Shown here one piece after another: positions 1-34,614 of a stretch of 64,000 nucleotides of DNA. The stretch lies in the NCBI GenBank assembly GCA_008632985.1, contig QPGO01000015.1, positions 187,998 through 251,997 on the forward strand. Reading direction: 5' to 3'. Positions within the stretch are counted from its first letter, which is position 1. Every line of letters begins with the position of its first letter. This DNA is from Psammoneis japonica. Lineage: Eukaryota. Under the pieces are notes generated by a model that saw only the letters and a list, made by a program, of their open reading frames with translations, was not told where the DNA came from and searched no databases. Both the position numbers and the translations under genes were made by a program.

Positions 1-2790
1 CAAGATCGGCACACGGAGCGAAGCCAAGTTCACACAGTCCTGTAGGAGCCGATGCCCCTCTGGCGCCTGACTTCGGTTCGGGTGTCTTGCAGCAGTACAT
101 GTAGTTGTTCAGAAAGGCATCGCTATCTTTGACGGAAACAAACAACCCGCGTGTCCTTGCAGACATTGCACTAGCTTTCGGTGAGTGAGTCGAAAGACGC
201 TTCAGCATGCTTTTCGCTGCGAGATCGAACCTCGTTGCCAGGCTTGATCCACCAGGCTCTGATTTTCCTGCGGAGAAGTGCTTCTTCAGATCCGGCAAAT
301 GAAAACTCGACGCAAAGCTTGGTGCACCAGGTTCTGATGAGATTGCTGTCGCGTTGCGTACCTCGTGCTTGCCGCCAACAATAGTGTGGTCAGAAGAGCC
401 CTTTGGTACGTCGCTCAGTGAAGGGAGGGACATGACTCGGCGTAGACTTCTCCGTCTGTCATTTTTTACCAACTGTTTGTGTGGATCTGCATTGCCAACC
501 GCAGCTGCATCCGAGGTGTAGCTTTCTGCTGTGAAGGCGGGCGCCGCCAAGAATTCACAGGGATTGTATGGCGGGGTCTGCATACATTCGTTCACTTCTT
601 TGCTTCCACTGTCGAAAGATGATGCAACAAAAAGATCGTTGGAGGGGTCCTGATTTTCTGGCTCTGTAAAACGTGGACGGCCATAACATGAATCTTTCTG
701 TGCTGAAGCGCAGCCATTGGATGACATGTTTACATTCGAGGACAAATCGTGGTCGCCCCCTCCCTTTATGAAAACGCCTTCGTGCTGCGCTTCCTCATCA
801 CACGCCTTAGGAATCCTCCGCAATGATCCAGTGATGTCTCCCTCACTCGATAATCCTTGAGATTCTTCCTCTTTGCAAGTTCTAGAGCTGGGGGTCATTC
901 CGCCAGTGACATTTGCGGGGCAAACACCTACATCGTCTTGGGTTCCAACCTCAAAGTCTGAAGTCTCGACAAGATCAGATAAGCCATTCCGTAAAGGTCG
1001 CATGGGCAGGGCAAATGAAGAGGATCCACTGGGTGCAGAAAGGTCCAACAAAGCAATTTTTCTGTCTCCATTTTGGAAAGGAGTATCTTCATGCATAATC
1101 TCCCCATCAGACGAACAGCGTCGGCGCTTTCCTTTTATGCCTTTCAATCGAATTGGTGTCATAAATTCTGTAGTCAAGCCGATTGGTGGGTGTCTTTCTA
1201 CGTCTTCGCACTCTTCTGATGCTCCAGCTAGCTCGGAATCAAGCTGACGGCTTGTTGCCCCGTGCCCAAGACAGGATGATGATGTAGATGATGCAGTAGA
1301 AACGGTCCTGTTATCCATGATGTCAAAGGGAGGTCGAGGTAACTGAGCTTTCTCTTCTCGCATCTGGCTTTCTCCCTCGATATTCGGGATGTGCAATCCG
1401 GACGGAATCCGGATTGGACCACGAGTACGCGGCGGTCCCGAAACTATTTGTTGGGCAAGCACCTTGCCTACGCCTCCCGAATCAAACAGAGAGTACTTGC
1501 TACTTTCGCCATTTAAATTTTCGTGTGATGGCAACTCATTGACAACATCTCTGTCATCATAATCAGCTTCGCCGGAATCGATGAGAGAGTTGGGGGAAAA
1601 CTCAGAATCTTCTTTGAATATTGATCTCTTGGGCGTTAATATCGACATTCTCCTCGATGCTTCTGTGCGAGGGGATAGATATTCCCGTGGGTTTGTATTG
1701 CTGTGACTTCCAATAGTCGTCGCAACCTTTTTTGGGGCGTCTTCATCACGGTCAACCCCCCAAAGCTTCAGCTTCCTCAAGAACGCAATTGACTGCCCCA
1801 TACTGTGTGCAGCGCTAGACGTGTCAGACCCATCCGTGTGCTGAGGACGTTTCCGCCGGTGTGGAAGGAGAGTTTGTTGATCAACGCCGCGCTGAGCCAT
1901 ATGTGATCTTAAGTTTTTGTGGAGAGCTTCCAAGCGAGGGATAACCTCGTTCACATCCCGAAGCGCCACAACCTTAAGTTTCGGCGCTGAGCGAAATGAT
2001 CTCGTTTTTGCCATTAACGATGGCTGCACCAAAGATCCTTCCGTACGATTTCGTTTCAACTTAAGTCTTGGGGGATTCAGAAGCTGATTTGATGTGTCAA
2101 TGTTCGGAGTATCGTCGGCAAAAGTGGACGGTTTCCCAACAAAGAACTTCTCGCCGGCGTCTGCAGCCTTTTCGGCCTCCATGGCAACTTCAAACATTTC
2201 CATTTGCCGAATTTCCGATCGAATCTTCAACCCAGCCTGCTCTAACGCTTCGTCTGAATCAATAGTATCTGCGCTACTTTGGCTTCCTGTTTCGCTGGTT
2301 CGTCTTTTGCTAGCGTCTATCCAGATTGAAGCTTGTGATATCCGTGTTGGACTGCGACAAGGTGTGTAACTGTGCTGGGAAAACGGATTATACGGTGAAG
2401 ATCTGGATGAGTGGGCCTCGGAAAATGATTTGGCTCTGGGTTTTCGAGTCGATGGTTGTGGGGATTGATCATTATGAAGTCGTTCCGTTGGATGCAGTTT
2501 GTCGGCTTTTCCGTCCCGATAACTTGACTCCGCCGTAGTCGCTGTTGCCGAGGACGATCTGCGGCCGTCCCAACATGGTTTCGCTACGCTCTCAGAAAAA
2601 TTACTATGATCCTTCATGAGAGTATCAGAGGTCGAGAAAGAACTCGTTGACTCGTTGTGCATCACGATAACATTCACACTTGTTGTCGGTGGCGTTGACG
2701 GAGCCATAGTTCGGCCATTCGACATCGGATCCAAGTCAGGCGAGCTCAAGCAGGAGATATCTAGAGGAAGTCTGCTTAAAGATGAATCTA
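1..2790 (-). CDS. Large Ser-rich hypothetical protein, 3' end runs off the window
   Basis: The minus-strand frame was open in every segment I translated between ~2790 and 1 (e.g. RSEIRQMEMFEVAMEAEKAA). It is probably absent from the ORF track because no stop lies in the window. The 5' exon structure is uncertain. Confidence 0.65.
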
Positions 2791-3236
2791 CGAACGTCAA
2801 CAGCTTGTATCATGAGCAAGGGCTGCGTGGTTGTAGCATACTAAAGGAGGATATACCTAATACATATGATGGACCCTATCGTCAACAAATAATTCGTTTG
2901 TTCTCGCTGTCGCCCATCCGTTCCCCGCCGTGCCCACGTGCTTGCTCCTCGCGGTCTCTTGGCATGTCGTGCGAAAAGTTTTATATAATTATTCAGAATC
3001 GTAGACATATTTGTGAAATCTGGCGAACCAACGGAATTCGATATAACAGATAGTCTTTAATCCGTTAAGCGTTAGCTAAGCAAAACCGTTATCACTATCA
3101 TGGTTGATGATGAACTCATGCCAATACTGAGCAACATTCAAATTTCCCGCCAGAAAATTCAGTCGGAGTTCAAGTTCGTTTGGGCGCGCCAAGGAGAGCC
3201 TCCTCTCTGGTCCTAGAGCATTTTCCCTCTTCTGAT

Positions 3237-4343
3237 TCATGTACCATCAAAAGGAAGAATAATGTTGGAAAGAAACTCGTAAAGCTCATCTCCGTAGCAC
3301 TGCCAGAGATATGATACGACGACCACAACGAAAACACAAATCATCCATGTTGATGCGTTTTCCGCTCCCATTTGTTGATCCAATTCATCGTCTGGAAGTG
3401 CCAGACTTCTTCTCAATTGCAAGGATTTTCGCATTGCAGTGCCATCTCGGGTATCACCCATATTGTTCTGAATGCGCCAGTAGGTGTGAGCTCGCAGTGC
3501 GAAGCTCGCCAAGTTTCCATTTCCGTTCCACTCGGCACAGGAACGCGACTGAAAGATTCCCTGCGCTGCGTCTGTTTCGGCTTGTTGTTCTAGGCCCAAC
3601 AAGTCTTCCGGATGACAAGATATTATACCAATGGAACTCTTCGATCCCTTACGCTTTCTTCTATCTCGCGACCCGAAGGACACCGCTTGCATGCAGCATT
3701 CCAAGCCAGGAGCTGCCCGAGGGTCATCACTTAACGCGACTGTAACACCCAAAAGCAAACCTCGTAATTCCTCACTAACCGCTACATTCCTTGCAAGCTG
3801 TTCCGCTTCCTTTATGTTAACCTCATAGTGTCGAAGGCGATTCATCTCGTCGGGGTCCTTCTTCTCGAAGGGAACCACCATTTCAACAACAAGGTAAAGT
3901 CGTGTCTTATTGGTCTCTTTCGTATCACCCGCCTTTTGTTTCAAGGCCGAAGGCGTCGTCTCAGATTCAGAATTTGTTTCAACTAGATTCTCTAGTCGCT
4001 TAACAGTATGTTTGACGGGCCCCTCAATGAAGGAGTTCACGCTTGAAAACTCACCCGGTCTCATCAGTAAATAGAGTAAGAGGAAAGGAGGGAAGGTACT
4101 TGAAGGTTCGTAAGACTCAGATGATGCCACCGTATCATTCGTTTTGTCGCAGTCGTCAATATCTGAAAGAAACTGCGTTGCATATCCATGTTGTTCTATT
4201 TCACTCAGCATATAATATCGCTCCGTGCTATACCGTGGCAACATGTGAGTGTTCAGGACGGTCACTGACAGCTGATCACCGTCTGAGGTATCTACCAATG
4301 ATTTTGGCTTTAACATGCAAGACGAAGAGCCTGATCTCCTCAT
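3237..4343 (-). CDS. Hypothetical protein with C-terminal transmembrane helix (368 aa)
   Basis: Long single ORF with a hydrophobic tail WMICVFVVVVVSYLW. Confidence 0.7.
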   Translation of the reverse strand: MRRSGSSSCMLKPKSLVDTSDGDQLSVTVLNTHMLPRYSTERYYMLSEIEQHGYATQFLSDIDDCDKTNDTVASSESYEPSSTFPPFLLLYLLMRPGEFSSVNSFIEGPVKHTVKRLENLVETNSESETTPSALKQKAGDTKETNKTRLYLVVEMVVPFEKKDPDEMNRLRHYEVNIKEAEQLARNVAVSEELRGLLLGVTVALSDDPRAAPGLECCMQAVSFGSRDRRKRKGSKSSIGIISCHPEDLLGLEQQAETDAAQGIFQSRSCAEWNGNGNLASFALRAHTYWRIQNNMGDTRDGTAMRKSLQLRRSLALPDDELDQQMGAENASTWMICVFVVVVVSYLWQCYGDELYEFLSNIILPFDGT

Positions 4344-4605
4344 TTTTGTCTTTATATTCAGTACGGCTTTATGACAAGGTCAGAGAAACGAGCCCAGGTT
4401 AACTTGGGCAACACACTACAGAGGCAATCTCATGCATGAAGAATCATCGTGTCATACTACTTCTACAAGTACAGTAAGAAACGAGAAACGCGCGGTTTTA
4501 GGTTCACCGCACGTCCGATTTTCAATTTTTTGATGACGTCATGGAAGAATTAGGTTTTGAGTTGCGGAGCTTCCCGCCAATTCCGCGCTCATCACTCCCG
4601 TCTAT

Positions 4606-7600
4606 CCCCGTGAAGATTTTCGTCTGTTTTTTGTCCGTTCGTGCCCACAGGGGCACGAAAGGAGGCTACGTAGGACTGTACCAGCAAATCCTGTAGATGC
4701 ACGTTTCCATGCCAACAAGATTCATGAACCTCTCAAACGAAAAGAGACAATGGCGTCGTTCTGGATCAACGCCGTAGTTGCTACGTCTGAAACCGCAGCG
4801 CGCCGCTTTTCTGCTCGTAGACTTGTACGCTGTCCTGGTACAAAGGTCATTGCATGCATAGAGTCTACGATGAGGTCACACTGAAGGAAGAATTCTCGAA
4901 TTTGAATTCTCAGCAATCAACCGAGTTTGTTTACTTTCTATTTTTTTATGCTGCCAACCAAGTCTTACAATCACACATCCCTGATTCTACCTGCATAAGA
5001 CGACACTGAGATTTCAGTCCATACATAAGTTCACTTGCACCAATGGATGAATCGGCGTTGTGCTCGGTGACGACGTCCGAATCAGATTGGGTGGAGTATT
5101 TCAATCCAACAGAGGACTTGAATTTTTGCGACGAGGATCTCCACTTGATTGAGGACAGCTTGATGGATGAGCATGATAGAACCGAGCAGTCAAAGGACCG
5201 TCCAAAATGGAAAGTGGACAATGATGGGAAAGATGTTAAGATTGCCTTTAGCCAAGCTCCCCAAAAGGTGTGGGAGACGGCCAAAGCCGAGATTACAGAG
5301 TGTCAAGGTTATTCAGAATGGTTCCAAGGACGCAAGCATGCATTGACCTCCTCTGGTTCTGATGCTCAAGTTTCAGTTCACCTTAGATTGGACAAAGCGC
5401 GAGAGCAGAGGCAGTCGCATTGGGTGTGCCTTGAGAAGCATCTCGACACGGCATCTGGTGTCGAAGATTTGGTGTGTCAAAATGATGACGATGATACGGC
5501 ACCGGCTCAGAATGACAATAATGATGCCACTGCACAATCCAATCCAATGACTGTTGGTGAAGGGAATGCTGCTGGCTCAGAGGACACCGATGATGATGAC
5601 ATTGTAGATTGGGCTGAGTTGGAAAAACACTTAGATTCAGACATGGAAGAGGAGGAGCGGATTTCTGTTATCGAGAGTCGCCGTTGGGAAGCAAAGGAGG
5701 CGTTGAAGAAAGCAAAGGAAATTCTTAGTGATGCAGTTGACTCCACCAAACGAAATGAGGTGTTGCGAGCCAAACTAATGTCGGAGTTGAAAGCTGGCGA
5801 GCACAAGGATCTCCTGAAGGCGTTCGTCAAACAAATGGGGTGGAAGGTTTGTAAGACGCACAAGGCAAACCTGAAAAACGCAGTTACGTGGCTAGAGTGT
5901 ACCCCCGCCTCTCGACCCTACATCGTGCTGAACAAGGAGCAACTGAAGGTAAGCATGTGTAATTGCTGCTACTGACATTATTTTACTATAGATCTAACCG
6001 AGTCGCTCCGAACCATTATTTGCTGACAAAGGCAAAATACCGAGAATGTATTAACAGCACGATACCGTCGAGTGTGACAAAAAACGATGACTTCATAGCG
6101 ATTCTGAGCGGTGAAGTCTCCGCACCAGTTGCAAGAGATGGCGATAGTGAGCCAAAAACGCCACTGGAAGCAATGGTGAAAACCACTTTTCTTCCACCAC
6201 TCAAAGGTGAGGCGGCGGAGCTCTGTAGATTGGGACATGAGATGGAAGAACAGTGCGGAAAAGATTTTCTTGGTGTTGCAAGCGGCGAAGGAGTGCGACT
6301 CGAAAACAGATCCGTATTTGTTGCAAACAATCTCTTCAGAGCCGGCCTGCTACAGAAGCAAAATCGCCCTTATCAAAAGGACAGTCCAGACTTCCTCTGC
6401 ACTGGAACAATAGACGATAAGCGAATCGTAGCGGTTGTCGAGATGAAGGCGCGTTGCAAATCTACTACCGCCGCCAAGGAGCGTCAGCGCATCTCCGAAG
6501 TTGGTGAATTTTCGTTTGTATCATGTGATTCGCCTGAGTTACGCAAGTTCATACTTAAACGTTCAGAGGCAGTTCAGGTGAGCTGATGCACGGAATAACT
6601 ATTTGATACTGTCGTTGTAACGGTAACTCACCTCAGTCTCCACGACTTCCTCGCTACAGTGCGCTCATCATGCAAGCACCCTTGGAGTCAACCACGTCAT
6701 TCTTGCCACTGGAGACAGAGTAGGCCTTACAGCAATGGTGGTTATTGAGTGCTCCGACGAGTTCCTTGAAAACTACGAAAAGTGCATCAACGACATGTAC
6801 GAGTCGGCATTGAAGTGGGCGTACGAGGAGGGCGTCGACATTCCAACCGAAGAGCTCAAGGCTGCTGTGAAAACTGCACGAGTAAAGGTGGACTATGAGT
6901 CATTTATGAAATCAATTTACTTTTGGAAAGAACTGACGAAGCCTCAGTACTTACCACTCCCACCGTGCGAGAGGATCATTCCCATGCAGGATGCGTACTG
7001 GAACAACACCAAGCATGGGTCGGACGTCAAAACCCAGTACTGCCAAAACCTATCAGCCCCAATTCCTGTCACATCTGCCGGAGCTAAGGCATACGACCGC
7101 ATGCAAATGACAGCACTATCCGACATCCACAAAGGCGCTACCATGTTTATTACCAAGGAAGATCTCAACCAGTGCAATTCCCTTCACGACTTCAGAGACG
7201 ATGCAAAGCACAAGATGAGCTTCAGAAAAGCACTCCTTCGATTGTCTAAGTTTTTCAAGAAGCTGAGCCAGCAAAATCTCCAAAGTGGAATTGGTTCTCC
7301 TTCGTCTTTTACAGGGATCGTTACACCATCACCAGCAACTCCAGTACAGCCGCCGAGGTGGATGCGCGGTGAAATTCAAAAGGAACCAACCAATTTTGTA
7401 GCAAAAGGAACTGGAAAGTCTCCCAAGCGCTCTCACCTAGAAGCTCTACTGAAACCAAAGGACAGTTCTGAAGAGGTCCCTTCCAAGCGATTCAAGAGTT
7501 GTCGGGGTGTACCTGTGTTCAGAGCAAATGAAAACAATGGAAGTAAGAAAGGGAGTGGAGCTTTGGCGCGATGTATCATGTGCGACTCCAAGACACATTG

Positions 7601-8010
7601 GTATTGCTCTGGCTGTCGTCAATGGTATTGTTGCGATAGTCCCGTCCGCAAAGCGCTGGAGTCCCATACTTTCAAGATTCGTCAACGTACCGTGATGGGA
7701 AAAACAGGGATCGACCAATCGCCGGCGTGTACACATGCTTATGCACTGTCACCCATCCATTGTGAACCAGGGATAGTAATATGTATTTGTATTTAGTGAA
7801 TATATCATCTTTTTGACCACCGGCGTAATTGTAGTACTTTGGAATATCATTTGTTGACAAGACGAGCGTTGTGTTGATGCTTTATCAATGAGAGCCGGTG
7901 TTTGTTTTGCACGTACAACTCGGTATGAAACCTACAGGGGCGTCGTTCGTGCCCACAGGAGCACGAACTTTTGCGTTCGTGCCCACACGCGCACGAAACT
8001 ATCACGCGGG
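4606..8010 (+). mobile_element. piggyBac-like DNA transposon with YqaJ-type nuclease domain
   Basis: CTAT|CCCCGTGA at the left end and TCACGCGGG|CTAT at the right (candidate 4-bp TSD, imperfect TIRs). Shared subterminal hairpin TTCGTGCCCACA..GCACGAA at both ends. Internal transposase-like ORFs. Confidence 0.6.
5043..7796 (+). CDS. Spliced, possibly disrupted transposase: PD-(D/E)XK YqaJ-like domain, piggyBac-like third-Asp motif and Cys-rich tail
   Basis: GHEME...SPDF...VEMK...VQ|CAHH, with intron 6578-6659 joining the ORFs in frame. WNNTKHGSDVKTQY resembles piggyBac YNxxKGGVDxxDQ, followed by CIMC..WYCSGC..WYC. The first junction (~5949-5991) does not splice in frame. Confidence 0.55.
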
Positions 8011-8099
8011 CTATCATCATCATCACTCATCCCTTCTATTCTGCCTGATTATTCTTCCGTTGCCTTCGGATTCCTGTGCCGCCAGATACTGAAATACCG

Positions 8100-10157
8100 A
8101 TGAAACAGTCGGAAGCCTCTGACTTGGAAATGAAAAGTGACAACGGCGATTCAGAATTGGGCGCCATTCCCTCATCTGCGGAAGATGAACCTCTGATAAG
8201 TCCGACCAGTGAAGATGAGGCTCTCAGTGATGTTTCCGCTCATTCAGCGGAGCTTTGGCAGGAAATGGAACGGCCGTGGCCTGCAACCTTTGAGCGTTCA
8301 ATATCGCTGTTAGCAAGTCCGATTATAAATGCCTCGAATGTTGACCATTTCACGCGGAGCCCAAAGCCTGGGGCAACACCAATAGGAGTAGCACATGCCA
8401 GGGTGAGAGAATCAAACGCCCCGTTGCAATCTTGCTTTTTTTCTTTTCGCGTACTCATGTACAACTCTTTCCTAGAAGCACCTTCGAGATCTCCAAAGAG
8501 GTTATGGCACACCAGAAACGAGCAAAGTCGTTCTTGCACCACCACGAAACAGCAGTTTTGACATGGGAGTTGCGCGGGTGAAGAGTTTGGATTTTCACTC
8601 GCAGTTTTCGCACACGAAACCTTCTATTGCGTCAGACACGGTGCGGAAACAGGAGCATAGAGCAACTCAAGCAAAGGCCTATCGTGAGAATCTGTTAAAG
8701 CAACAGCCTCAGACACACGCAGACATTATGTCCCCGGGATACCAGCGCGAGAAAATGACTGCTGAAATGGTAAAAGAGCAGCAGAAACAAGCAAGCATAG
8801 AAGCGAAAGCGACTTTCTCCCAAAGCTTGTTTAACATGGCCAACATTCTCATGGTGAGATTATTCTTCACACGTTTCGCAGATATTCTTTTGAGTTTGCG
8901 GCTCATTTTGCAACTTGTTTTGTTCAGGGCGTTGGGATTCTCGGGCTGCCTTATGTATTCAAGGCAAGTGGTTGGCTGGGAGGATTTTTCGTCACGTTCT
9001 TCTTTGCCTTTATAACATGGAGGACGTCCATTTTGATTGGACGGGAATTGAATGGCGACCCTCGTCCCTCTAGCTTCTTCGATGACTCGCCCTTCAAAAG
9101 CCCGTTGATTCCAGGATCTGATCCTCAGGCGCGAATGCGATGGCCGCTCAAATCCTTCCCCGACATTGCTCGTGAAGCTTTTGGAGAAGCTGGGTGTTTC
9201 ATTCTATCGTTGCTCCTCTATTTTGAGCTATTTTCCTGTCTGTCCATCTTCTTTGTATCCCTCGGCGATCATTTGCATTCCTTATTCCCCAGTGTGTCCG
9301 TGACGCAGCATATGGTCACCGTTGCGGCTTTTCTTACCATTCCTACCGCCCTTCTTCGAACTCCACGGCTACTTTCCTATCTTTCAATGGTCGGAACGTT
9401 TGCGACAGTTGCTGTAGTGCTGTCGGTTTTCTTCTCGGCACTGACTCAAGGCGACATGACGGAGCGGTTGGCAGAAAGCCGAGGTGTCCAAGAAAAGGGC
9501 CCCTACCGTGATATTTGGAAAACATCAGGCTTGCCTCTTGCTCTTGGACTAATTGCTTATGCGTTTTCTGGACACGCAATTGTCCCATCAATCTACACTT
9601 CCATGCAGCGGCCCCAGGACTACGAGAGAATGATTGGCGTGACGTTTGTTATTGTTGTCGCTTGCAGTTTGCTCGTAGCATGCAGTGGGTACTACATATT
9701 TGGCTCGTTTGTCGACGACCAAGTAACTATTTCTCTTGCCAAGGTCTCGCTTGGTGGTGGGGCAGACACTGCCATGACAATGCTTACATGGCTGATGGTT
9801 TTGACAGCATTCTCAAAGTTTACTTTGACTATGTTCCCTCTGGCGCTCGGATGCGAGGAAATCGTTGCGCCGTATTTGGGAAGCGACAAAGTGATGGATG
9901 TGGCTGCATCTATTATCAAGCTTCTTCTGATAGTCCTTTCACTTGCAGTGGCAATTTTTGTGCCGTCTTTCAGTTTTCTTTGCTCTCTTGTCGGAATGAT
10001 ATGCACGATGGCAGTGAGCGTTATATTCCCAGCGGCGGCCCACTTAAAACTGTTTGGGAACAAACTCTCTCTTGGCGTTAGGATGTTAGACTGGGCTTTT
10101 GTTATTTTTGGTAGTGTCATGGCAGTAATTGGAACAATTGCAACAGTCAACGTTTGA
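8100..10157 (+). CDS. Amino-acid transporter (Aa_trans/AVT1-like), introns near 8403-8475 and 8854-8927
   Basis: TFSQSLFNMANILM|GVG.LGLPY and GLIAYAFSGHAIVPSIY motifs; many TM helices. Confidence 0.9.
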
Positions 10158-13557: not shown

Positions 13558-16500
13558 GGCAGCGCCGCAGTGCAGGCATTGACAGATGCGTCCAACACCA
13601 TCCGCAGCCTTGAACAGATCGGAGTGCCAACGGCACTCTCCGTTGCAACTTGTTGCCACCCCCATCAAGGCTGCAGCAGCAGCTGCGACACCAGTCTTGC
13701 ATCAAACTTGGGCAAACAGCACCAAGTCTGAGCAACGCCAGTGCTTTGCACATGCCTTGGAGGCCCAAGCCCAAGAACCTGATGCAGCATCTCAAATCGC
13801 CCCTGTTGTCTCCAAGGAACTCTTCAAGATGGTCTTCCAAGGCAAGGTTGCCCCACACGGCACCAAGTCAATGACATGTCTGCCAGCATCTCTCCATTCA
13901 CCTGTGGTTTCTTTGTTGATGGGCAAGGCTCCACGTCCAAGTCAGAGCCAACCATTGCGATCTTTCCCTGCAGGGGAAACCTTGCCTGCACCATGGCAGA
14001 GCAAGAGGAGTTCCAGATCAAGGGTGCACCCTTGCCCTTCTCCACACATCACTGTGGGTGCATGCTCCAGGGCACATGAGTCTCTGGTCCTGGATGTGAT
14101 TCAGGGGGACAATCACCCCCACATGGTGGCGCTCTGCCAATTCTGCTTGTGGGATTGGACTTGTTGGAGCAATCCAGCACCCTGCCAGTTGAGGGAAACG
14201 TCCTGCCACACATCTGCCATGAGGCACAGACACTCATGGTTGTGCACGGACTGCACCGCAATCACCCACAAGGTCCTTTACAGTCAGTTCTCCCTGCTTG
14301 CCCAGCTGCCTCGTCACCTGCTTGGCCAACCTGCGAAAGCAGCGGAGAACCCACGCAGTCAGTTGACACTGAAGACGGTGGATGCAGAGGATCTAAAAGG
14401 GGCACCAGGCACAATCCTGGTGCTGCCATCATGAATCCCAGCCTGGTTTGGTCCTGGTTGACAGCCTTTGTGCAAGCGGGGGTCCGTCTGGCCACAGCGT
14501 GACATTTTGCACCGCGCACTGCCAACTCTGGCGGCACTCTGTGTGAGGTGTGTCTGTCCTGTACTTGAAGGGCACATGCTTTGTGAACTGCGAGCATTCT
14601 GGGACACACAGAAACTTGTCTTCCAAGGGAAAGGACACCCATGAGTGCCTTTGTGCAGGAACACCTTCCCAATCCCCAAGACGGGGGTGTGCCTGCACCG
14701 GCACCCATGCCGGCGGCCACCACCTGAAGACCTGGGCCGGCCAGTCCCAGGTCTGGCCTGCAGCCTGCCTCTGCCAACTTGCAGGACCTGCATCAGCAGC
14801 ACCCCTGCAGTGACGAGCCAGGTGAGTTAGCGAAGGAACAGGTTGATCTCTTGCATCAGCCAGGCTGGCCCCAGTTTGTCACACACTTGTGCGGGGAACC
14901 ATGTCTGGCAGAGAACGCAGGCCAGCTGCCCCATCCAGCTGCCAAGCCACCACTGAAAAGTCTCCGCAACAATGGAGCACCTGTCCAGTTCACCACCCCA
15001 GACCGGATGCCAGCCCAGATCCAGATGGCCACCGACCGCAGCAGCCATCCATTTGCATGCAAGCATCTGGGCTTCCTCAAGGCTGACATGGCAGACATGA
15101 TCCACAAGCACTGCTGGACTGTCCTGCCAAGTGCGCAGTGTGTGATTGGCTGTTGCCGGTGGTGCAGGCCTCCTGTCGAACTTGCAGCACTCCCTTGCCA
15201 AGTCTCGCAATCCCGCATGAAGATCAACCGGCATGCCCAGTGCCACCAGCTGCAAGACCTCCATGTGCTGGTGGTTGACATCACGTTGCAACCCACAAGG
15301 TTTGCAGAACTGTTCCCTGCCACCAACGGGCACTGCTGCAGTGCTTGCGATGCAGCCAAACCTGGGTTCGGCAGCGTGCTGCTTCCAGGGCCTGCCGACC
15401 CCCCCATGGTGTGGCAGGTGCCACTGCCACCAGATCTCCAAGCATCCATTGTTTTGGATGACAACCCAACGGGCACCATCACCAACTCAGATCTGAAACT
15501 CTCAGGCACTGTCATGCACAAAGGCAGCAGTTGTCGGCCACACCATTGACGTCTGCAAGCAAACGGTCCACACATGCGGCAACAACACCCCGTCAATCTC
15601 CCACTGCAGAAAAGGCTCCATCACCACCAACGGCCTCGGCGCCAACATCCTCAGAACTGGCAGTCTCCAGCAATGCCATCTCCAACACGTCTCCCAGCTG
15701 CACTGCATGCCCGGGCCAGCCAACCTGTTGGCAGACACGTGCTCTCACAAATTTTCCATGCACTCTCACCTGCTTGCCACTCTGACCCACCTTGCTCCGC
15801 AGATGAAACCTTGGCAAATGCTGTGCCCACTGCATGACATCATTTCCTCACTGATCTCTGCCTTGCAGAGGCAAAAGCCAAGCAAGCTGTCACTCGAGAG
15901 CACGCCCAGACCATGGACACTGTGCAGGCAAAGTGCTGGCTCCCGTTCCTGTCTGACATTGGTGTCAAAGACCCTCTCCTCACCGGTGTCTGTGACAAAA
16001 TCCTGATGCTCCAAGTCTTTGCCCATTGCCTTGGGGATGGACACCTTGGCTGCAGTGGCAACCCAATCACAGCTGTGCACATTTGTGATGAAGTCCTTCA
16101 CATCGTGAAGACGTTCACTGAATTGGGGGCCCCAGATCCAAGACTGACCACACACAGCACCATGGACCCATGACTCTCCTGCCCGCACATCACATGCACC
16201 AAAGATGATCCACTGCCCAACCACGTCAAGCCCCTGCCAATGCAAATCATGTGCCATGCGCAGGCTCTCATCGATGCACATGCAACGCCGCTGGACAGCA
16301 CCATCATCGACATGTCCTGGATCGGACTTTTCCACCTGCTGCATCCCGGTGAGCACTGCAAAGCCAAGGACAATGACCCCCTCATGCCAGCCGATGTCAA
16401 GTTGCTCATTGGCCAACATGCCCTTGACCACCTGTCCTGCCCACTCTGTCAACTTTTCCTGGCAACCCACAGCAGCATCACGTTTGACACACAGAAGAGC

Positions 16501-17443
16501 CGTGAACATGGCGAAGTTGTTGGCCAGGCTTGCAGCTCACACTCCAAAGCATGCCCAGTCCCAGCAATCATGGACCAAGTCCATTGCCTCCATTCTTGCA
16601 GTGCCAACACCCGCACCCCACTGTGTGCAGTTTGTGTCGGCGCGCATTTGGACACATGTCGCCAGCTGCGCGATCACGAAAACTTCTTGCCCAAGGATGA
16701 CATGTCTCGCAGCCTCCACACCGGTGGTGCTGTGGCCTCACTGTGTGCCAAAGTCAACATGGACATCACATGCCTTGTCGGATGATGGAAATGAGATGCC
16801 ATGTTCCGACACTTGCGCGCACAAGCTCTCCCGTGTTGATTGCCGAGCTTTCAACAAAAGTTCCACACACTGTGGAAACTTCACTTTGTTGCCCAGTGCC
16901 AAAGTCCCGCCTGTCACACAAAATCTCATCAATCAAGCCGAGGCTCCTGCCACCCCAGCAAATCCTCGGCAAAACCCGCCCTCAGCTGCGCTTCTTGCCC
17001 CCACCCCTTTTTGCTCGTCGGCACTCCCAAGAGTGGTGGTGGGAGGCGGTTCTGGTGCACCAGGGAGTCACAGCAAAAACCCCAGCAAAGCACTGACACC
17101 ACCAGCCACTGCCTCCCAACTGTGGCAGGACGCAGCCCCCAGCAGCATTGGTGGCGAACAGCCATTGCAGCAGCAAAGTGGCAAGGACAGACGCGCCCAA
17201 CACCATCCGCAGCCTTGAACGGATCGGAGTGCAAACGGCATTCTCTGCCATTGCAACTCATCACCGCCTGTCGAGGCCACAGCAGCAGTTGTAATTTGAC
17301 CCACCACTCCCACCCAGGCCGCCTAGCAGGAGGCGGTTCCGGTGCTGGAGAGAGGGAGTCACGGCACAAACCCTGGTACAGTAAAGCGCTGATGCCACCA
17401 GCCACGTGCAGCCCCCAGCAGCGTTGCTTGGTGGCGAAGAGCC
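13558..17443 (+). mobile_element. Degenerate Ngaro/DIRS-group tyrosine-recombinase retrotransposon
   Basis: Split direct repeats A1 (13581-13690)...B1 (17042-17163) A2 (17186-17292) B2 (17329-17443). RT relic FLKADMADMIHKHCWTVLP, RNase H relic GTITNSDLKLSG, YR relic SLHTGGAVASLCAKVNMDITCLVG*WK*DAMFRHL. Confidence 0.85.
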
Positions 17444-17590
17444 ACGTCCGTCCCCCACCCCCGACGCACGCAGATCGCAGCGAGTAGCAATCCAAATCTG
17501 AAATCATCAATCCATTGATGCACTTGCTTTTGCAATGGTGATTGCAATTGAAACTAGCAATTGCAGAGCACCGAAGAAAAGCACACGTCA

Positions 17591-20500
17591 ATGTCGGCAA
17601 AAGCAGTGAGAGAGTACCACGGCAAGAAATTGCTTGCGAAACATGTACAGGAGTTTTCGAATGGCGCTCACATCATCGACGATCGGTCTGTACTCATTAC
17701 GCCTTCCAGTGACATGGAGAGCATAACTGAAGACGAACCGTGGGTTGCAAGTGAATCGCTTGTGAGTGACAAGCAGGGCGTGGTTGCAAAGAAGTGCTGA
17801 CCTTTCTTTCTAACCTTTTGGATCGATTCCCTTCTTCTTTCTTGTAATCACCGCATCAACTAGGTCGTCAAACCTGATCAGTTGATCAAGCGGCGTGGGA
17901 AAGCTGGATTGGTGGGTATAAATCTTGATTGGTCACAGGTACAACAGTGGATTGCCGAACGCATGAACAAGGAAATAAAGGTGGAGTCCACCACGGGCGC
18001 TCTCGATCATTTCATAGTCGAACCATTCGTTCCGCACGCTCAGTCGGACGAATACTATGTTTGTATCCAAAGTGACCGCGAAGGAGAGGAGATTCTGTTT
18101 TACGCGCAAGGTGGAGTTGATGTCGGAGATGTCGACGCTAAGGCGTCCCGCTTGCACGTTGCCATCGATGATAACACGACTTCTTCATCGCAAATCCTCG
18201 CCTCATCTCTTCTTTCGGGTGTCCCTGATTATCGACGGGCGTCGTTGTCGTCTTTCGTGGTTACGCTTTTCAAGGTCTACCGGGCCTTAAACTTCACGTA
18301 TATGGAGATCAATCCCGTCGTTGTAACAGATGATGGTGTCATTGTGCCCCTGGACCTGGCGGCGAAGATTGACGAGACAGCAGCCTTTCTTAACTCTTCC
18401 GATTGGGGACACTTGGACTTTCCAGCGCCCTTTGGGAGGAAGGAATTTCCGGAAGAAGCGTACATCCGCGAGCTTGATTCAAAGACAGGGGCATCCCTGA
18501 AGCTCACGATCCTGAACCACACTGGACGCATCTGGACAATGGTGGCTGGTGGCGGGGCGAGTGTTGTCTACGCGGATACTATTTCCGATTTAGGCTTTGG
18601 ACACGAGGTCAGTGTTAAGACATAAGCTATGTTGCTGATTGCCTCTCGTTGGTACATCTTGCTCTCGATCTAACCGGTTAGTGCGTCCCTGATTCGTGCT
18701 TCTCCAAAACAAAAGCTGAGCAACTACGGCGAATATTCCGGAGCCCCCAGCGCAGAACACACCTATGAGTACGCCAAGACACTGATTGGTCTCATGACAC
18801 GAGAAAAAGATCCAAGAGGAAAGATATTCATTGTTGGAGGCGGAATAGCGAATTTTACAGATGTCGCTGCCACATTCACTGGCTTGATCAAAGCGATAAA
18901 TTCCTTTCGGGAGGAGTTGAAGTCTCATAAGGTTAAGATTTGGATTCGTCGGGCTGGTCCTAACTATCAAGAAGGGCTGCGCTTGATGCGTGCTACAGCA
19001 GAGGAAACACATCTTCCCATTCATATCTACGGGCCCGAAACTCACATCACTGCGATAGTACCTCTCGCCCTTGGACTCGAAAAACCCGAAGACTTCCCCG
19101 AATTCGACGACGAAAGCCATGAGCGCAAACAGACCTCCCGCAAAGGACATGGACAGAAAGATAGCCCGTTAAAACCCCAAGAATGCGACCATGAAGCAGA
19201 TCACAAAGTTGAGAACTTCAGCTCAGCTACACGATGCGTTGTGTATGGTCTCCAGCATCGCGCTGTTCAGGGAATGTTGGATTTTGACTTCATGTGTAAA
19301 CGCGAGAAACCCTCCGTTGCGGCAATGATTTTTCCTTTCAGCGCGAATCATTTCATCAAGGTACGTCACATACACTTGTACGTTTGGCGCATTGCTCATG
19401 CCGTTTTTTCACTGACTTCTTTAATCTCTCTTGATCATCCCCGATAGTTTTATTGGGGCACAGAAGAAATCCTTGTTCCGGTTTATCAAAAGATGCGGGA
19501 GGCTTTCGAGAAACATGCCGATGTTACTGTTGTCGTGAACTTCGCCTCGTTTCGCTCGGTTTTCTCGTCGGTGATGGAAATCCTTGAGTTCTCCCAGCAA
19601 ATCAAAACGATTGCTATAATCGCTGAAGGCGTCCCAGAGTCGCAAACTAGAAAATTTATAAAAGCGGCGAGCGCGAAAGGTGTGGGAATAATAGGTCCTG
19701 CGACAGTGGGTGGCATAAAGGTGGGTAATGAACGAATGTGTCTACACGTAGCAAACGTGATGTCTTCCTTATACTGATCTGTCTGCATCGTGTCGCAATA
19801 ACAGCCGGGGTGCTTTAGGATCGGCAACACCGGTGGCATGCTGGACAATATCGTCCTATCTAAATTGTACCGCCCTGGTAGCGTCGCATACGTATCCAGA
19901 TCTGGAGGAATGTCGAATGAACTCAACAACATTATCTGCCGGAATTCAGATGGTGTGTACGAGGGTGTCGCAATCGGTGGGGATCACTATCCTGGCTCTC
20001 GTTTTATCGACCATCTTCTACGCTATAACGACAACCCTTCTGTACACATGCTGGTATTGTTAGGTGAAGTTGGCGGTACTGATGAGTATGAAATATGCAG
20101 TGCCGTGAGGTCCGGGCGTATTAGTAAGCCGCTTGTTGCGTGGTGCATTGGTACATGTGCTAGTATCTTTCCGTACGAGGTCCAGTTCGGACACGCCGGA
20201 GCTTTGGCAAAAGGTGACATGGAGACCGCTCGTGCCAAGAACCAAGCGTTGAAGGAAGCTGGTGCACACGTACCAAAAAACTTTTTCGAATTCGGAAATA
20301 TGATTCGGGAAGTCTACGACAGTTTGGTTGAAGCGGGGACGCTTATCCCAGCACCTGAGCCCGAAACACCAAAAATTCCGATGGACTACACGTGGGCGAA
20401 GAGCCTTGGTCTCGTGCGAAAGCCCGCGAATTTTATCTCGTCTATCTCCGATGATCGCGGGGATGAACTGGAATACAGCGGTATGCCGATCAGTGAAGTT

Positions 20501-30200: not shown

Positions 30201-33200
30201 AACATAGAAGTCGAGAGCGGGGTAAATGCGAGTGAAAAGCTGATGGAAATGAAAAGGTTCCTTTTTCAAGTCATGAAGAAGTTTTCCTTCTCTTTGCATG
30301 CAACCCCTGGGAAACGCAAGTTTGATGGCGCTCTCACATGTGTGAACTTTCTGAACAACAGCGGACTGAGTACGATAGATGTTGCTTTGAAGTGAGAGGA
30401 GCTCTATCTTTCGGGGGTGTCGAAAATGGCCTGTCTGGCGATTCGCCTGACGAATGTCGCGTTGCTGCGGTGCGGGCGCTGCTGCGTCTAAGGCAGGTCT
30501 GTTTTCACCCGAGAATGCAGAATCTCGTGTCTCGTCATTTTGGTTCCAGCTCATCGATCCTAGCTCATTCACTGTCCAAGAATGAAACGACTGAGCCTCC
30601 CGATGTCCCAGTTTGGGGAAGGGGGTGTTTTAACAGGGTTGTGTCCAAAAGTTCTTCGCAGCCAGATATTTCATTGGCGTTAGAGATACTGAGATCTTCG
30701 GCGAAACTGAGAGAGCTCTTGATGATTCTACGCTCGGAAGGCGGCTATCACATTCAGGGCGACGACGTCATTGGTGCCGAGATAGAAAATGTGCGTCTCC
30801 CAAAGAAAAAGGAGAATAAGGGCGTCCGGGCGAGCGTAACCTGTCGGAAGGTGGTAATTTTGGCGTCTCTACCCGAAGCTCAGCTTGTCACTTCCCTTTT
30901 GTTAAATGCCGTTGGCATTACACACGAATTGTTAATGAGGTCACCTTCTTCGCGAGATCGTCTCCTGATCCCTTCAGCTCACGCCATCAAGATAGATCTA
31001 CTTCCCTGACCGTCCATCCCGCTCCTGTCCTGTCTTGGATTGAATGCCAGCATGCGTTAGCAAGATTTAATACTTCTTTGGGGCAGAGCTTATCGAAAGA
31101 CGAAAGCCAAACCAGAAATTCCAGCGTCAACGTGGTTGTGGCTTCGCCTGTTTCGGTTGCGCATTTGAGTGGCGGCGTTGGAGTGTCTTCAGCAGATTTG
31201 ATTGTTTTGCTAGACGAAGATTGGAGTGGTAGGAGCGAGCGAATCTCGATGTCAATTGTGACGTCTAGTCAGCGAAAACCTCGAGCTGGCTCTAAGCGGA
31301 AAGACGCTGAATGTGATTGTATCAGATTGATATGCAGAAACACTTGCGAAGAGAAGTTTCTCTTGTCAGAGGGAGGAAAGAGTCACGCAACTGACCCCCG
31401 TGGCCAATGGACGCCTTTGGGTATTTAAGTTTGCCAGATCAAACAATTTCGCGGCCGATATAAGGAATGCAGCGGATGGCCACCCGATACGGTCCGCTTC
31501 GCAAGGCATCTTTTCATTCCCTGGTACCAATATCTCAACGTTTCAAGATTCGGACTTGTCTTTGGTTCTGTGCTCAGATGACCTCCCCCCTGATTTTGCG
31601 ACAGGTACTCAAGCAAGCTTTCTACCCGCCGATGCATTGCAAGGAAGCTGTCAGGCATCAGAGTACGCCTCATTTGTGCAATCTTTGATAGATTTCGAAG
31701 CTGCTTCTTGCCCGTTAACTACCAAGCAAGACTCCGTGTGTGAAGCGGGCGACGGCGAGCCGGACATTCGATATTTTGCCATTGCACCACCTCTTGCGGC
31801 GGACATGCCTCCCATGGTTGTGACTCGTCGTGACGTGCTCTCGCTATCTTCACGGTTGTACATCGAGATGTTTGGAAAATCTTTTGTTTTGGATAGCTTG
31901 GGTTCCGTGTCTGCTGCTCCCTCAAACTTGCTGCCCGTGCAGCCGGAAAACTCTTTTTTGATGGGCCCGTCGGACGAAAACACAGAGCTAGTTGATGTGT
32001 GGCATAAAAGTGGTCTAAGCTCCAACCCAGATGATCTTGCCAAGTCGCTTCTGGTGTACGACTACGCAAATGTCGATGGTATGCCCCAACCGCTGGCCTC
32101 TCCGGCTCACAATCCGATGAAACTAGTGTCGCTGCAGCAAGAGTTCTGTTTCGACTGATTGTCGGAGAAACACGTATTCGTTGAGCTTCAGCTTATCTCG
32201 TACCGGTCAGTATACGGCTATCCGTGATGGCAACCAAGGATGTGAACCAAAGGTGTATTTTCCACCTCTTTTTCCCACTTTACAGTTGGGTTGCGATTTG
32301 GCGAAGGCCGATATTCTTGGTTTAAACCACCTGGGCTTGCACAGATCGTCCCTGAAAAATGAAAGCAGCACCGGACGCCTTTCATCTGCAGTAACCGCTC
32401 GCGACGGCGAGAGCGGGAAAAAACGAAAGGCTGCAGCGTCGGAGGCTCCTCGAAGTGGAAAGCGACCAAGAATTCAGCATGCTTCTCAAGTTGCAACCTC
32501 CGATTTGATGGGTGAGACTTCAACCGAGGCATCCGGTCAAGTTCAGACGCTTTCTTCACCCCAAGGAACCACTTCATCTGTCCCTAATTCGGAAAGTGAT
32601 GCGTCAAGGCTTGTCGGTGCCACTGATACTTCTGGTGTCGACGCAGTTCACTCGTTGCACCGTAAGGAAGATTTTGGGTTGGTTGGCATCGGCGCCCTCG
32701 CACACCCCTCCGCTTCAGCATTGGCCTCTGCCATGGAGTCGGTAGATGTCTCGACTTACACGGATTGGAAAGATCAGTTTGAATCAAACACCGCAGATCA
32801 AGATTACTTTTCACATGGTCTTGTTTGTGATTCGGAAGAAGCAGATACTCTTACGACGAGGAGCTCTGAAAATGCTCAGCTTGACGCCATGCTACTCTTT
32901 GTCGCAAAAAAGAGCTTGGTGGCATGGATTACAGGTGGTGCCCAATACCTTCCTACCGCAAAAGCCGGTGTGGGAGGCACGCAAGGAACAATGGCAGCTT
33001 GGGCATCATCTGCGAACGCGGGAACAGTGACGGGGTCCTTGGCTGCGGGTGTCATTGGAAATGGTGGTCTGAATGGCTCCGCTTCTTCCAAGAAGAAGAA
33101 GAAAGTACACCAGAATACGGTATCTACTGGTGCTTCGGCATTCTCTCGAATACCACATGCGGGGTTCTCTGGCGGAAGCCAACTTATGAATAACTACGCG

Positions 33201-34614
33201 GCATCTGGTGCAAGGGCAAGAGATGGTTCCAAAAGCAAGATAATCTCGCGACAAAGGAGACAAGGCTTGTCTCTGTTTGATTATTCTTCATTCAGACTCG
33301 CGTTTGTGCGTCTCCGTAACCGAGTGTCAGACCGCGTAGCGCAGTCGTCCCTAGAATGGAGTGAGTCTTCTGGCGTCGGAACTGGGGTCCCTTTGATCTT
33401 GCTGAAAGGGGACACATCACTTGCTCAACAGTTGAGTCAAGGAGTACAGGGATATGGAACATCCGTTGGAGGATGGACAGGCATTGTTACCCAGGCTTCT
33501 TCTGATGGCGAAAGGCTTGAAGCGCAGACGGCGACAGTGGCTGATTGGAGCTCGCCAAATCGCTCGGTGGAAGCACCGTCACGCGTTGATTTTGGACCTT
33601 TTCAAGCTGGATATCTTTCTTCGTCATCGGCACTGACGGCGGTCACTCCGCCTAGCCCTAGAGTAGGGGTGTCACTTCCGATGGGGGTCAAGATTCCTTT
33701 TCACCGAAGGGAACAGCAAGCATCGCCTTGGACGACCGACGAGGACGACGTATTGCGAAAGTGTGTATCAAGATTTGGGCCCAATTTTCAGCTAGCAGCT
33801 TTCTTGGTCAGCAAGACGCAATATCTGCTCCAACGTCGTTTTCGGATGAGGAGATAACTCGTTCAGCAAGGCAATGCCGTGAACGATGGAGCTACTTGAC
33901 GAGTTCCCAACCGTCACTGGCAAGGACGTTCAGCAGCTAGAGCAATCTTTCATGGAGAAAGGCTTTATGAATCCTGATCAAATAGTACACTCCTTTCACA
34001 GTGTAACCAGCAGAGTCTTCTGTTATCTCAGGCTGAGACCGCCGCGGATCAGGCAAACCTGATCTCGGCCCGATTCGGTAGCGAAGACGTGTTGCTTCCC
34101 TCACACTGTGTTTTCGAGCGAGGAGACGCCCTTCTACTACCCAAGAGTCTGCCGAAGACAAAGACGAAAGCGGCGATGTTGTAATGAAAGAGTCTACGAA
34201 TGACGGATCGGAGCCCACGGTTTCAAAGACAAAAAGGTCCTTTATCGCTTCCGGGGCGCTGCGTTGCTGAAACAGGAGGTGCCCCTTGCAATCCCTGGCT
34301 CGACCAGCAGTGACACTGCTGTGCCAGCGCTAGTTGCTTCACACCCCTCTCATATGCAATCTGTCCAGGCAGCAGTTTCTCGATCTCCGACGGCGAGCAG
34401 CCGTGACATGTGGCCCCTTCAGATGTTAGGTATTGCTGACAAGCAACGCGGGATGATGTCTGGAAGGACGGCATCGCAAGGGTCCGCTGCGGCGTCTTCA
34501 CCTAGTCGAAGCCCTGGAAGCGCTCAGCAAGGCGCCCGGTCCAACGGGCCACCCACACCGCAGTCAAATTCAACAGCACGTCAGCAGCAGTCGGCGTCGT
34601 CGCCATATAAGTAG
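27219..34614 (+). CDS. Large chromatin protein: HSA domain, degenerate SNF2-like ATPase and SANT/Myb (EAF1/p400/Domino-like)
   Basis: [25 protein letters not shown] (HSA); [68 protein letters not shown]. Several frame breaks. Confidence 0.75.

Follow-up and report, generated by a model that had tools for sequence, protein, structure and literature searches.

The 64,000-nucleotide (nt) stretch of the Psammoneis japonica genome analysed here (GenBank assembly GCA_008632985.1, contig QPGO01000015.1, positions 187,998 to 251,997 of the forward strand; hereafter the window, in whose own numbering all coordinates are given) carries at 4606-8010 a discrete element that begins with CCCC and ends with GGG. 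Its single gene, on the plus strand, consists of three open reading frames (ORFs) that splice into an 862-residue frame, and the features of gene and ends are collected in Table 1. We consider it likely that the element is a recent, non-autonomous insertion of a multi-copy transposon of the cut-and-paste type, belonging to a very divergent piggyBac-like lineage of diatoms, in which a nuclease is nested within the transposase.

Table 1. Features of the element at 4606-8010, in window coordinates.
Feature	Position	Strand	Basis
Left target-site duplication, CTAT (CTATC including 4606)	4602..4605	.	Empty-site joint
Left terminal inverted repeat, CCCCGTGAAGATTTTCGT, imperfect	4606..4623	+	End alignment; 13.3-kb contig stops at 4606
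Subterminal 22-nt palindrome, left copy (8-nt arms, 6-nt spacer)	4638..4659	.	Motif count
Exon 1: conserved N-terminal segment (5199-5249), deletion junction, YqaJ N-terminal motif, acidic spacer, start of SAP-like segment	5043..5948	+	
Internal deletion junction, in frame	5292..5293	+	blastp to P0151, P0152 and P0162; three X1 contigs diverge upstream
Nuclease N-terminal motif, QGYSEWFQGRKHALTSSGS	5304..5360	+	QG..WF..R.FS.TSST conserved in 20 full-length relatives
SAP-like segment	5913-6115, across intron 1	+	SAP and Rho_N Pfam matches in 1/20 relatives each
Intron 1, GT..AG, 83 nt, phase 0	5949..6031	+	X2 contig; relatives align across
Exon 2, PD-(D/E)XK nuclease core: LGHEME 6230-6247, KDSPDF 6377-6394, VVEMKAR 6434-6454	6032..6577	+	
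Intron 2, GT..AG, 82 nt, phase 0, splits Q..HHA motif	6578..6659	+	Relatives align across
Exon 3 as assembled: nuclease end, three helices, Asp 3 motif RIIPMQDAYWNNTKHGSD (6972-7037), all-helical region, linker, Cys-rich part from 7572	6660..7796	+	
Subterminal palindrome, two right copies (7946-7967, 7976-7997)	7946..7997	.	Motif count
Right terminal inverted repeat, reverse complement CCCGCGTGATAGTTTCGT	7993..8010	-	End alignment; 6.8-kb contig from 8011
Right target-site duplication, CTAT (CTATC with 8015)	8011..8014	.	Flank letters and empty-site joint

The ends of the element resemble those of piggyBac, with an imperfect inverted repeat of approximately 18 nt running inwards from CCC, the alignment score of which was equalled by 12 of 5000 random window pairs, followed by subterminal palindromes. 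Allowing up to two mismatches, the palindrome TTCGTGCCCACAGGGGCACGAA occurs at three sites in the 64 kb, all of them at the ends of the element, against an expectation of 0.00 from 100 shuffles, and its distribution is asymmetric, with one copy on the left (4638) and two on the right (7946 and 7976). Both flanks carry CTAT, and in fact CTATC is common to the two sides; the duplication may be of 5 bp (CTATC) instead of 4, and the insertion is either 3405 nt plus a 4-nt duplication or 3404 nt plus a 5-nt one. A scan of 4000-8600 against Rfam gave no match.

The mobility of this sequence is seen most directly in the contigs of public sequencing runs, here X1 and X2, that contain window DNA and were aligned to the window; the runs are probably from the sample behind the window assembly, and summed contig depths are not equal to copy numbers. 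In X1, a contig that matches 4606-4910 exactly has a word depth of 783 against approximately 60 for contigs of the flanks (~13-fold), and 213 contig pieces fall on the element, in identity bands of 99% and above (64 pieces), 95-99% (67), 90-95% (58) and below 90% (24). A 13.3-kb contig of the same run stops exactly at 4606 and a 6.8-kb contig starts at 8011, the latter also providing the empty site, as it joins 4601 to 8011 with 3409 nt skipped and five letters that fit both sides. A contig of X2 crosses the right tip (loose end at 8013) into 179 nt of another flank, which reads CTA and then ATAAG..., giving CTAA(T) on the right side of this second copy; such a different flank means that another copy lies elsewhere, and none was found within the 64-kb window. 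Taken together, the breaks at the tips, the excess of depth, the diverged copies, the empty site and the second flank leave no reasonable reading of the contig evidence other than a repeat that is mobile and was active recently, and the finding of a polymorphic insertion between divergent host genes suggests that the family is active in this organism now, or was so recently. The sequence-only reading of this DNA, made before any of these contigs were consulted, had proposed a transposon with CCC...GGG ends flanked by CTAT, and this holds, the letters being as described and the multi-copy depth, the breaks at both tips, the second flank and the empty-site contig supporting it. The opposite outcome that it had allowed for, a single-copy syntenic host gene without variable flanks, is contradicted by the ~13-fold depth, the empty site and the other flank.

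The gene belongs to a large family of proteins. A search with exon 3 found 425 representative proteins (E ≤ 1e-3), of which 179 reach E ≤ 1e-10 and nine E ≤ 1e-30; some of the family members are transcripts contributed by diatom transcriptome sets. Even the closest relatives share only 48-50% identity, and full-length relatives are of approximately 1200 aa. Nearly all HMMER hits (149/150) matched the spliced protein in blastp, 75 of the 149 contiguously through the junctions and reaching upstream of residue 440, and the relative P0151 aligned unbroken to window residues 86-786, both junctions included. A protein search with the profile of 20 full-length relatives (alignment A4; 719-1382 aa) gave 15 proteins, none with a precomputed Pfam domain, and provided no stepping stone to annotated piggyBac proteins, and a locus search with profile A3 gave one metagenome locus of 1252 nt, which does not include element ends, and none among viral contigs.

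The in-frame splicing that had been proposed from the sequence is supported by the two phase-0 GT..AG introns, by relatives that align across both junctions and, for intron 1, by its observed removal in an X2 contig, where the sequence passes at 5949 straight into the start of exon 2; no sense-strand spliced read for intron 2 was seen in the run contigs. None of the runs listed is on record as RNA, and X2 is taken as RNA-like because a GT..AG joint is seen in a neighbouring gene, an amino-acid transporter whose first intron (8403-8475) is spliced in this run. The proposed motif set, GHEME/SPDF/EMK/Q followed by WNNTKHGSD, is likewise all in place in the spliced protein, with the EAVQCAHHAS motif spanning intron 2.

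A separate observation on transcription concerns the X2 contig that leaves the element at its right tip. This contig (1183 nt, depth 339) covers 6752-6873, 6955-7508 and 7687-8013 before its 179 nt of non-window flank, and looks like a spliced antisense read-through transcript that enters another copy of the element from outside. Its skips at 6873-6955 and 7508-7687 were considered as deletions of that other copy and rejected, the CT..AC ends being those of antisense introns (GT..AG on the minus strand). Two loose ends of X2 contigs in the region 6481-6643, worked out by hand, imply further joints: one from 6555 to 6632 with CT..AC ends would be a further antisense intron, and one from 6481 to 6539 with non-canonical ends may reflect another copy that has lost 57 nt in frame.

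What a full-length protein of this family would contain is apparent from the A4 alignment, in which three conserved aspartate motifs surround the nuclease. Upstream of the nuclease lies LDDDK, which is at least 90% conserved, followed approximately 85 residues on by DRGY, in which the Asp is invariant, and then by G....GT.KR, in which the T and R are invariant across the 20 full-length relatives; downstream lies R.IP...A.WN..KGGSDT.TK, in which N, K and D are invariant in the same set. For comparison, the Asp contexts of piggyBac are a hydrophobic strand ending in DE, the sequence D-N-W-F-T-S...GT.R.NK and the sequence YN..KGGVD. From the two upstream Asp motifs together with the piggyBac resemblance of one relative, P0152, which is described below, we read WNxxKGGSD as the third catalytic Asp motif, with LDDDK as predicted catalytic Asp 1, DRGY...GT.KR as Asp 2 and WNxxKGGSD as Asp 3. 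The full-length order would then be an N-terminal helical region, Asp 1, Asp 2, the nuclease module, Asp 3, an all-helical region and a Cys-rich zinc domain, with Asp 3 formed by two helices joined by GG and the Asp placed on the second helix.

The window copy itself departs from this order, as all three Asp motifs are present in full-length relatives and only that of Asp 3 is present here. In blastp, window residues 9-84 correspond to residues 25-103 of P0151 and window residues 86-786 to residues 478-1129, a pattern repeated with P0152 and P0162, and the window copy is without approximately 374 residues that contain Asp 1 (LDDDK) and Asp 2 (DRGY...GT.KR). An internal deletion near 5300, removing the first two catalytic Asp, had been suspected from the sequence, and these alignments, together with X1 contigs, place the junction at 5292/5293. 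Three contigs of X1 follow the window sequence downstream of the junction, starting at 5293, and differ upstream of it, where their 22 letters, hand-translated in frame, give ..LNVDHV, similar to the ..PIDHTV that precedes QG..WF in P0151; as these contigs continue past 5293, copies with the missing region seem to be present in the same genome, to judge from this short translated stretch, and could supply transposase in trans. Having lost Asp 1 and Asp 2, the window copy cannot catalyse its own transposition; it is non-autonomous and must be mobilised by other copies. What it retains are the nuclease, Asp 3 and the DNA-binding parts, and its protein, if translated, could at most bind the ends or interfere.

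A smaller defect affects the Cys-rich tail, which had also been proposed from the sequence and which is indeed present from 7572, with the exception of its last part, which is out of frame in the assembly. Read contigs carry an extra C after 7640 (at all depth) and an extra T after 7738 (633 of 851 in X1, all depth in X2), both in homopolymer runs, and the homologous frame passes through 7640-7738 and then 7741-7776 (MHCHP..., with a stop at 7774-7776). The frame at 7640-7738 matches the relatives P0161 (E 1.7e-5) and P0160 (E 2e-4) and that at 7741-7776 matches weakly (E 0.02); the assembled frame of the last Cys-rich part has no match to relatives. A further extra C, after 4605, occurs in read contigs at a depth of 28.7 of 89.1, again in a homopolymer run. 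At 4605, 7640 and 7738, the assembly may have miscounted the homopolymer, or this copy may truly differ from the others by a single base.

The nuclease module extends from the QG..WF motif, which we take to be typical of YqaJ, to just before R.IP...A.WN, accounting for approximately 500 residues of the window protein, and it is interrupted by an acidic low-complexity spacer and the SAP-like segment. Aligning 60 relatives shows conservation of GH.LE, KDS.DF, E.K and ER.Q.LHHA, motifs that are all present in the window; across the 60 sequences E121, K123 and Q166 do not vary, and the conservation of D104 is 90% or higher. The catalytic pattern of D...ExK followed by Q...H/Y is thereby present, in the window as KDSPDF, VVEMKAR and EAVQCAHHAS. 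An AlphaFold2 (AF2) model of the relative P0001, which is 44% identical over the core, has a mean predicted local distance difference test (pLDDT) score of 74.5, and a Foldseek search with it placed lambda exonuclease, LHK-Exo and Cas4 SSO0001 at the top, with probabilities of 0.96-1.0 and E values of 0.008-0.03, none at E ≤ 0.001; the fold predicted is that of the lambda-exonuclease/YqaJ type. The Pfam model for YqaJ (PF09588) matched none of the three window exons, among which the domain is split by an intron, and only one of the 20 full-length relatives, at E 0.017, a match too weak for the curated cut-off. Pfam scans of the window exons and of the sets of 25 and six relatives gave no match to any family. 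By modelled fold and by motifs, then, we regard the nuclease as YqaJ/lambda-exonuclease-like and too divergent for the Pfam hidden Markov model (HMM), and because its motifs are invariant the domain should be active. In the aligned relatives it is nested between the motifs of Asp 2 and Asp 3; placed after the beta-strands that follow Asp 2 and before the helix pair of Asp 3, it would hold the topological position of the insertion domain of piggyBac.

The resemblance to piggyBac is clearest for P0152, a transcript-derived protein of 719 aa with an ORF recorded as complete; its identity to window exon 3 is 44%. All three Asp motifs and the Cys-rich tail are there but nothing of the nuclease module, and P0152 stems either from alternative splicing or from a copy that has undergone another deletion. 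In a feature-based search of the ESM Atlas with this protein, the PF13843 (DDE_Tnp_1_7) set accounts for 20 of the 30 matches (score 0.90, 181-186 shared features), and in a structure-based search it reaches template-modelling (TM) scores of 0.47-0.52 over 382-415 residues to three PF13843 clusters (rows 2-4), these three being the only Atlas structure rows that meet the bar for a name. The same Atlas searched with window exon 3 gave no usable match, and a structure search of the PDB with the AF2 model of exon 3 gave no match and no piggyBac chain, the Trichoplusia ni enzyme being, we presume, entries 6X67 and 6X68.

Downstream of the nuclease the exon-3 model (mean pLDDT 76.0) is all-helical, with a helix at 109-117 that ends at W114-N115, a K-H-G-S loop and D122 standing just before a helix at 123-130; helices continue to residue 208 and give way to a low-confidence linker and a small beta-rich Cys domain. 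The pattern C..C...T.W.C.GC....C ... C....H of this last domain is present in relatives, and its profile matches extended-PHD fingers (E 0.003) and, only at an E value of 1.4, a chain named as a DDE_Tnp_1_7 domain-containing protein. In the published description of piggyBac (PMC7351741), the catalytic domain occupies residues 263-457 and is interrupted, beyond its fifth strand, by the insertion domain (372-433); a G444-G445 link joins helix alpha9 to helix alpha10, on which D447 lies; residues 457-535 are in an all-helical DNA-binding domain, and past a linker the Cys-rich domain binds to an internal palindromic repeat of 19 bp, the two ends being asymmetric. The order seen in the exon-3 model, namely a helix ending in W-N, a short loop, the Asp at the next helix, an all-helical region and a Cys-rich domain, matches this description. 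Further hallmarks of piggyBac are the TTAA target, inverted repeats of 12-19 bp that begin with C and are often accompanied by subterminal repeats, and a fourth Asp, D450 (PMC5381638).

Compared feature by feature, then, the element is like piggyBac in having a single transposase gene between short inverted tips with C first and G last, asymmetric subterminal palindromic repeats and a short duplication with a central TA (PMC7351741, PMC5381638), as well as, in the family, three Asp motifs that are conserved and ordered alike, with a GG link before the helix of the third and, after it, an all-helical region and a putative Cys-rich zinc domain. It is unlike piggyBac in the lambda-exonuclease-type module of approximately 500 residues that its family carries between Asp 2 and Asp 3, in its introns, in its CTAT(C) duplication, with CTAA(T) beside one other copy, in a Thr at the position of the fourth Asp and in the lack of a PF13843 match. 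The link to piggyBac drawn earlier from WNNTKHGSD and the Cys-rich tail is strengthened by the two further Asp motifs of full-length relatives and by the PF13843 neighbours of P0152, and the suggestion of an unusual transposon family by the nested nuclease, the non-TTAA duplication and the missing PF13843 match. The same reading had staked itself on some similarity to YqaJ or DDE_Tnp_1_7, which fails at the level of Pfam HMMs and is found only in fold, language-model features and motif order. We describe the element as piggyBac-like and within the IS4/piggyBac clan, not as a proven member of the superfamily.

Several results weigh against placing the element with piggyBac or qualify the evidence for its movement. 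The PF13843 model matched none of the proteins scanned, with counts of 0/3 for the window exons (E ≤ 10), 0/25 for relatives (E ≤ 0.01) and 0/6, and 0/20 for the full-length relatives (E ≤ 10), and profile searches of PDB sequences (A1, A4) gave zinc-finger matches only and no piggyBac transposase. The Atlas evidence is one source, obtained on the relative P0152 and not on the window copy, with an Atlas model of mean pLDDT 0.53, and bacterial IS4, ISAs1 and IS1380 transposases are comparable there, with TM scores by row of 0.60-0.72. The duplication is CTAT(C), of which the empty site keeps one copy, and not the TTAA that defines the superfamily, and it is documented on both sides at one insertion only; the empty-site joint itself is one contig end with 25 left-flank letters on its shorter side, probably from the same sample.

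A rival reading is that the family is a separate DDE/D superfamily within the IS4/piggyBac clan, its piggyBac-like traits (GG-linked Asp 3 motif, Cys-rich tail, CCC/GGG tips and palindromic subterminal repeats) being common to the clan or convergent. The failure of PF13843 on every member scanned, the non-TTAA duplication, the Atlas structure neighbours among bacterial ISAs1, IS4 and IS1380 transposases and a giant-virus IS4 cluster (TM by row 0.60-0.72) and the conserved Thr in place of the piggyBac fourth Asp, D450 (PMC5381638), all speak for this placement, which we nevertheless judge unlikely, given that 20 of 30 Atlas feature matches fall in the PF13843 set, that the three nameable structure rows are all PF13843 and that the domain order after Asp 3 follows piggyBac. 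Much less probable is that the nuclease is the only recombinase, with a PD-(D/E)XK-based or homing-like movement in which no catalytic part falls to the Asp motifs of the longer relatives. In its favour, the window copy, for all that it has an intact nuclease and neither Asp 1 nor Asp 2, is a polymorphic insertion of recent date, and the catalytic residues of the nuclease are invariant; set against it, the Asp motifs equal those of the nuclease in conservation across the 20 full-length relatives, the transcript relative P0152 keeps three Asp motifs without the nuclease, and fuller copies that could act in trans appear to be present in the same genome. Inverted tips and a short duplication are, moreover, the signature of DDE/D strand transfer. 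That 4606-8010 is a domesticated or ordinary host gene, as its long open frame, sense-strand splicing and location between host genes might suggest, is scarcely credible in view of the ~13-fold depth, the diverged copies, the breaks at both tips, the empty site in the same sample and the other flank.

If the element is, as we favour, a divergent piggyBac-like transposon, its Cys-rich domains would, by analogy with piggyBac, bind the 22-nt subterminal palindromes, and the DDD site (the three Asp) would cut the 3' ends at the CCC/GGG tips and join them to the target with a 4-nt (or 5-nt) stagger. Repair of this stagger would produce the CTAT(C) duplication, the central TA of which is common to TTAA and to the CTAA at the other copy. 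Enzymes of the lambda-exonuclease type act 5'-3' on DNA ends, and the nested nuclease would most likely work on the other strand or the 5' ends, by cleavage or by 5'-3' resection; alternatively, it may process the donor break for homologous repair. We tentatively raise the possibility, doubtful as it is, that the nested nuclease is a second active site that cuts or resects the non-transferred (5') strand, which would make the protein a single-chain eukaryotic counterpart of TnsA/TnsB without a hairpin step.

Known two-nuclease systems offer partial parallels. In Tn7, a DDE transposase, TnsB, is paired with TnsA, a protein of PD-(D/E)XK fold that cuts the other strand at the ends; as an instance of two-nuclease transposition it is the best functional analogy, although it is bacterial, uses two proteins, has a TnsA that is restriction-enzyme-like and not lambda-exonuclease-like, and has no sequence relation to the present family. 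The nearest precedent is ISL2EU (PIF/Harbinger-ISL2EU-Spy), a eukaryotic DDE transposon that encodes a YqaJ-type exonuclease, with an inferred target sequence of A|AT|T; unlike here, its YqaJ protein is encoded on its own, by a second ORF next to that of a Harbinger-type DDE transposase, which has THAP and helix-turn-helix domains (PMC4482050). Pfam matches to DDE_Tnp_4 or THAP were absent from the window exons and the 20 full-length relatives, and the single gene of the element differs from the ISL2EU layout. KolobokP is similar in being a eukaryotic DDD/E transposon with an acquired extra nuclease and different in belonging to the Kolobok superfamily, in the His-Me finger homing endonuclease that it carries and in its composite-like architecture (PMC9587614). 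In diatoms, elements have been described as 'weakly related to piggyBac' (PMC2806351), and Table 2 of a study of Phaeodactylum tricornutum gives 65 copies of PiggyBac class (PMC5859163); compared by description only, these diatom repeats may be the same as, or related to, the present family. For the combination of piggyBac with a nested YqaJ/lambda-exonuclease, no description was found among titles and the starts of abstracts, a search whose coverage did not extend to Repbase and subscription journals.

What emerges is a family of piggyBac-like transposons in which a YqaJ-type nuclease is nested and the target duplication is not TTAA. Its interest lies in the position of piggyBac as both a model for seamless cut-and-paste transposition, with one DDD site and a hairpin intermediate, and a widely used tool for genome engineering: a nuclease in the position of the insertion domain, together with the absence of TTAA, raises questions of second-strand cleavage or end processing and of whether target choice can change, and, with ISL2EU carrying its nuclease as a separate gene, of whether YqaJ-type nucleases have been recruited by eukaryotic transposases more than once. 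The family is large (425 representative clusters) and is expressed in diatoms, and since Pfam is blind to it, annotations of algal genomes probably list its members as hypothetical genes or unclassified repeats. Were the second-active-site proposal true, a change in chemistry could accompany the loss of TTAA specificity, and the 425 clusters, with no Pfam model, would form a large branch of eukaryotic DNA transposons, at the level of a superfamily, that has gone unrecognised.

The window around the element is gene-dense, with short GT..AG introns, and its neighbouring genes include the amino-acid transporter, an ATP-citrate-lyase-like gene, an EF-G-like GTPase, a cyclin and a desaturase. The element sits in a short spacer between two divergent host genes, an unknown ORF at 3237-4379 on the minus strand and the transporter at 8101-10157 on the plus strand (Aa_trans, E 7.6e-53), and without the element this spacer would be only approximately 300 nt. 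Two further long ORFs, at 2-2809 (minus strand; 936 aa, open at the window start) and 32127-33857 (plus strand; 576 aa), matched no Pfam family at E ≤ 0.001, and that at 16148-17218 had no Pfam match. The last of these lies in a compositionally distinct segment, 14001-18000, which has a G+C content of 0.55-0.58 and a strongly negative GC skew, against approximately 0.47-0.50 elsewhere, and in which long ORFs overlap on both strands (14728-15549 and 16148-17218 on the plus strand, 14856-15620 and 15766-16536 on the minus strand).

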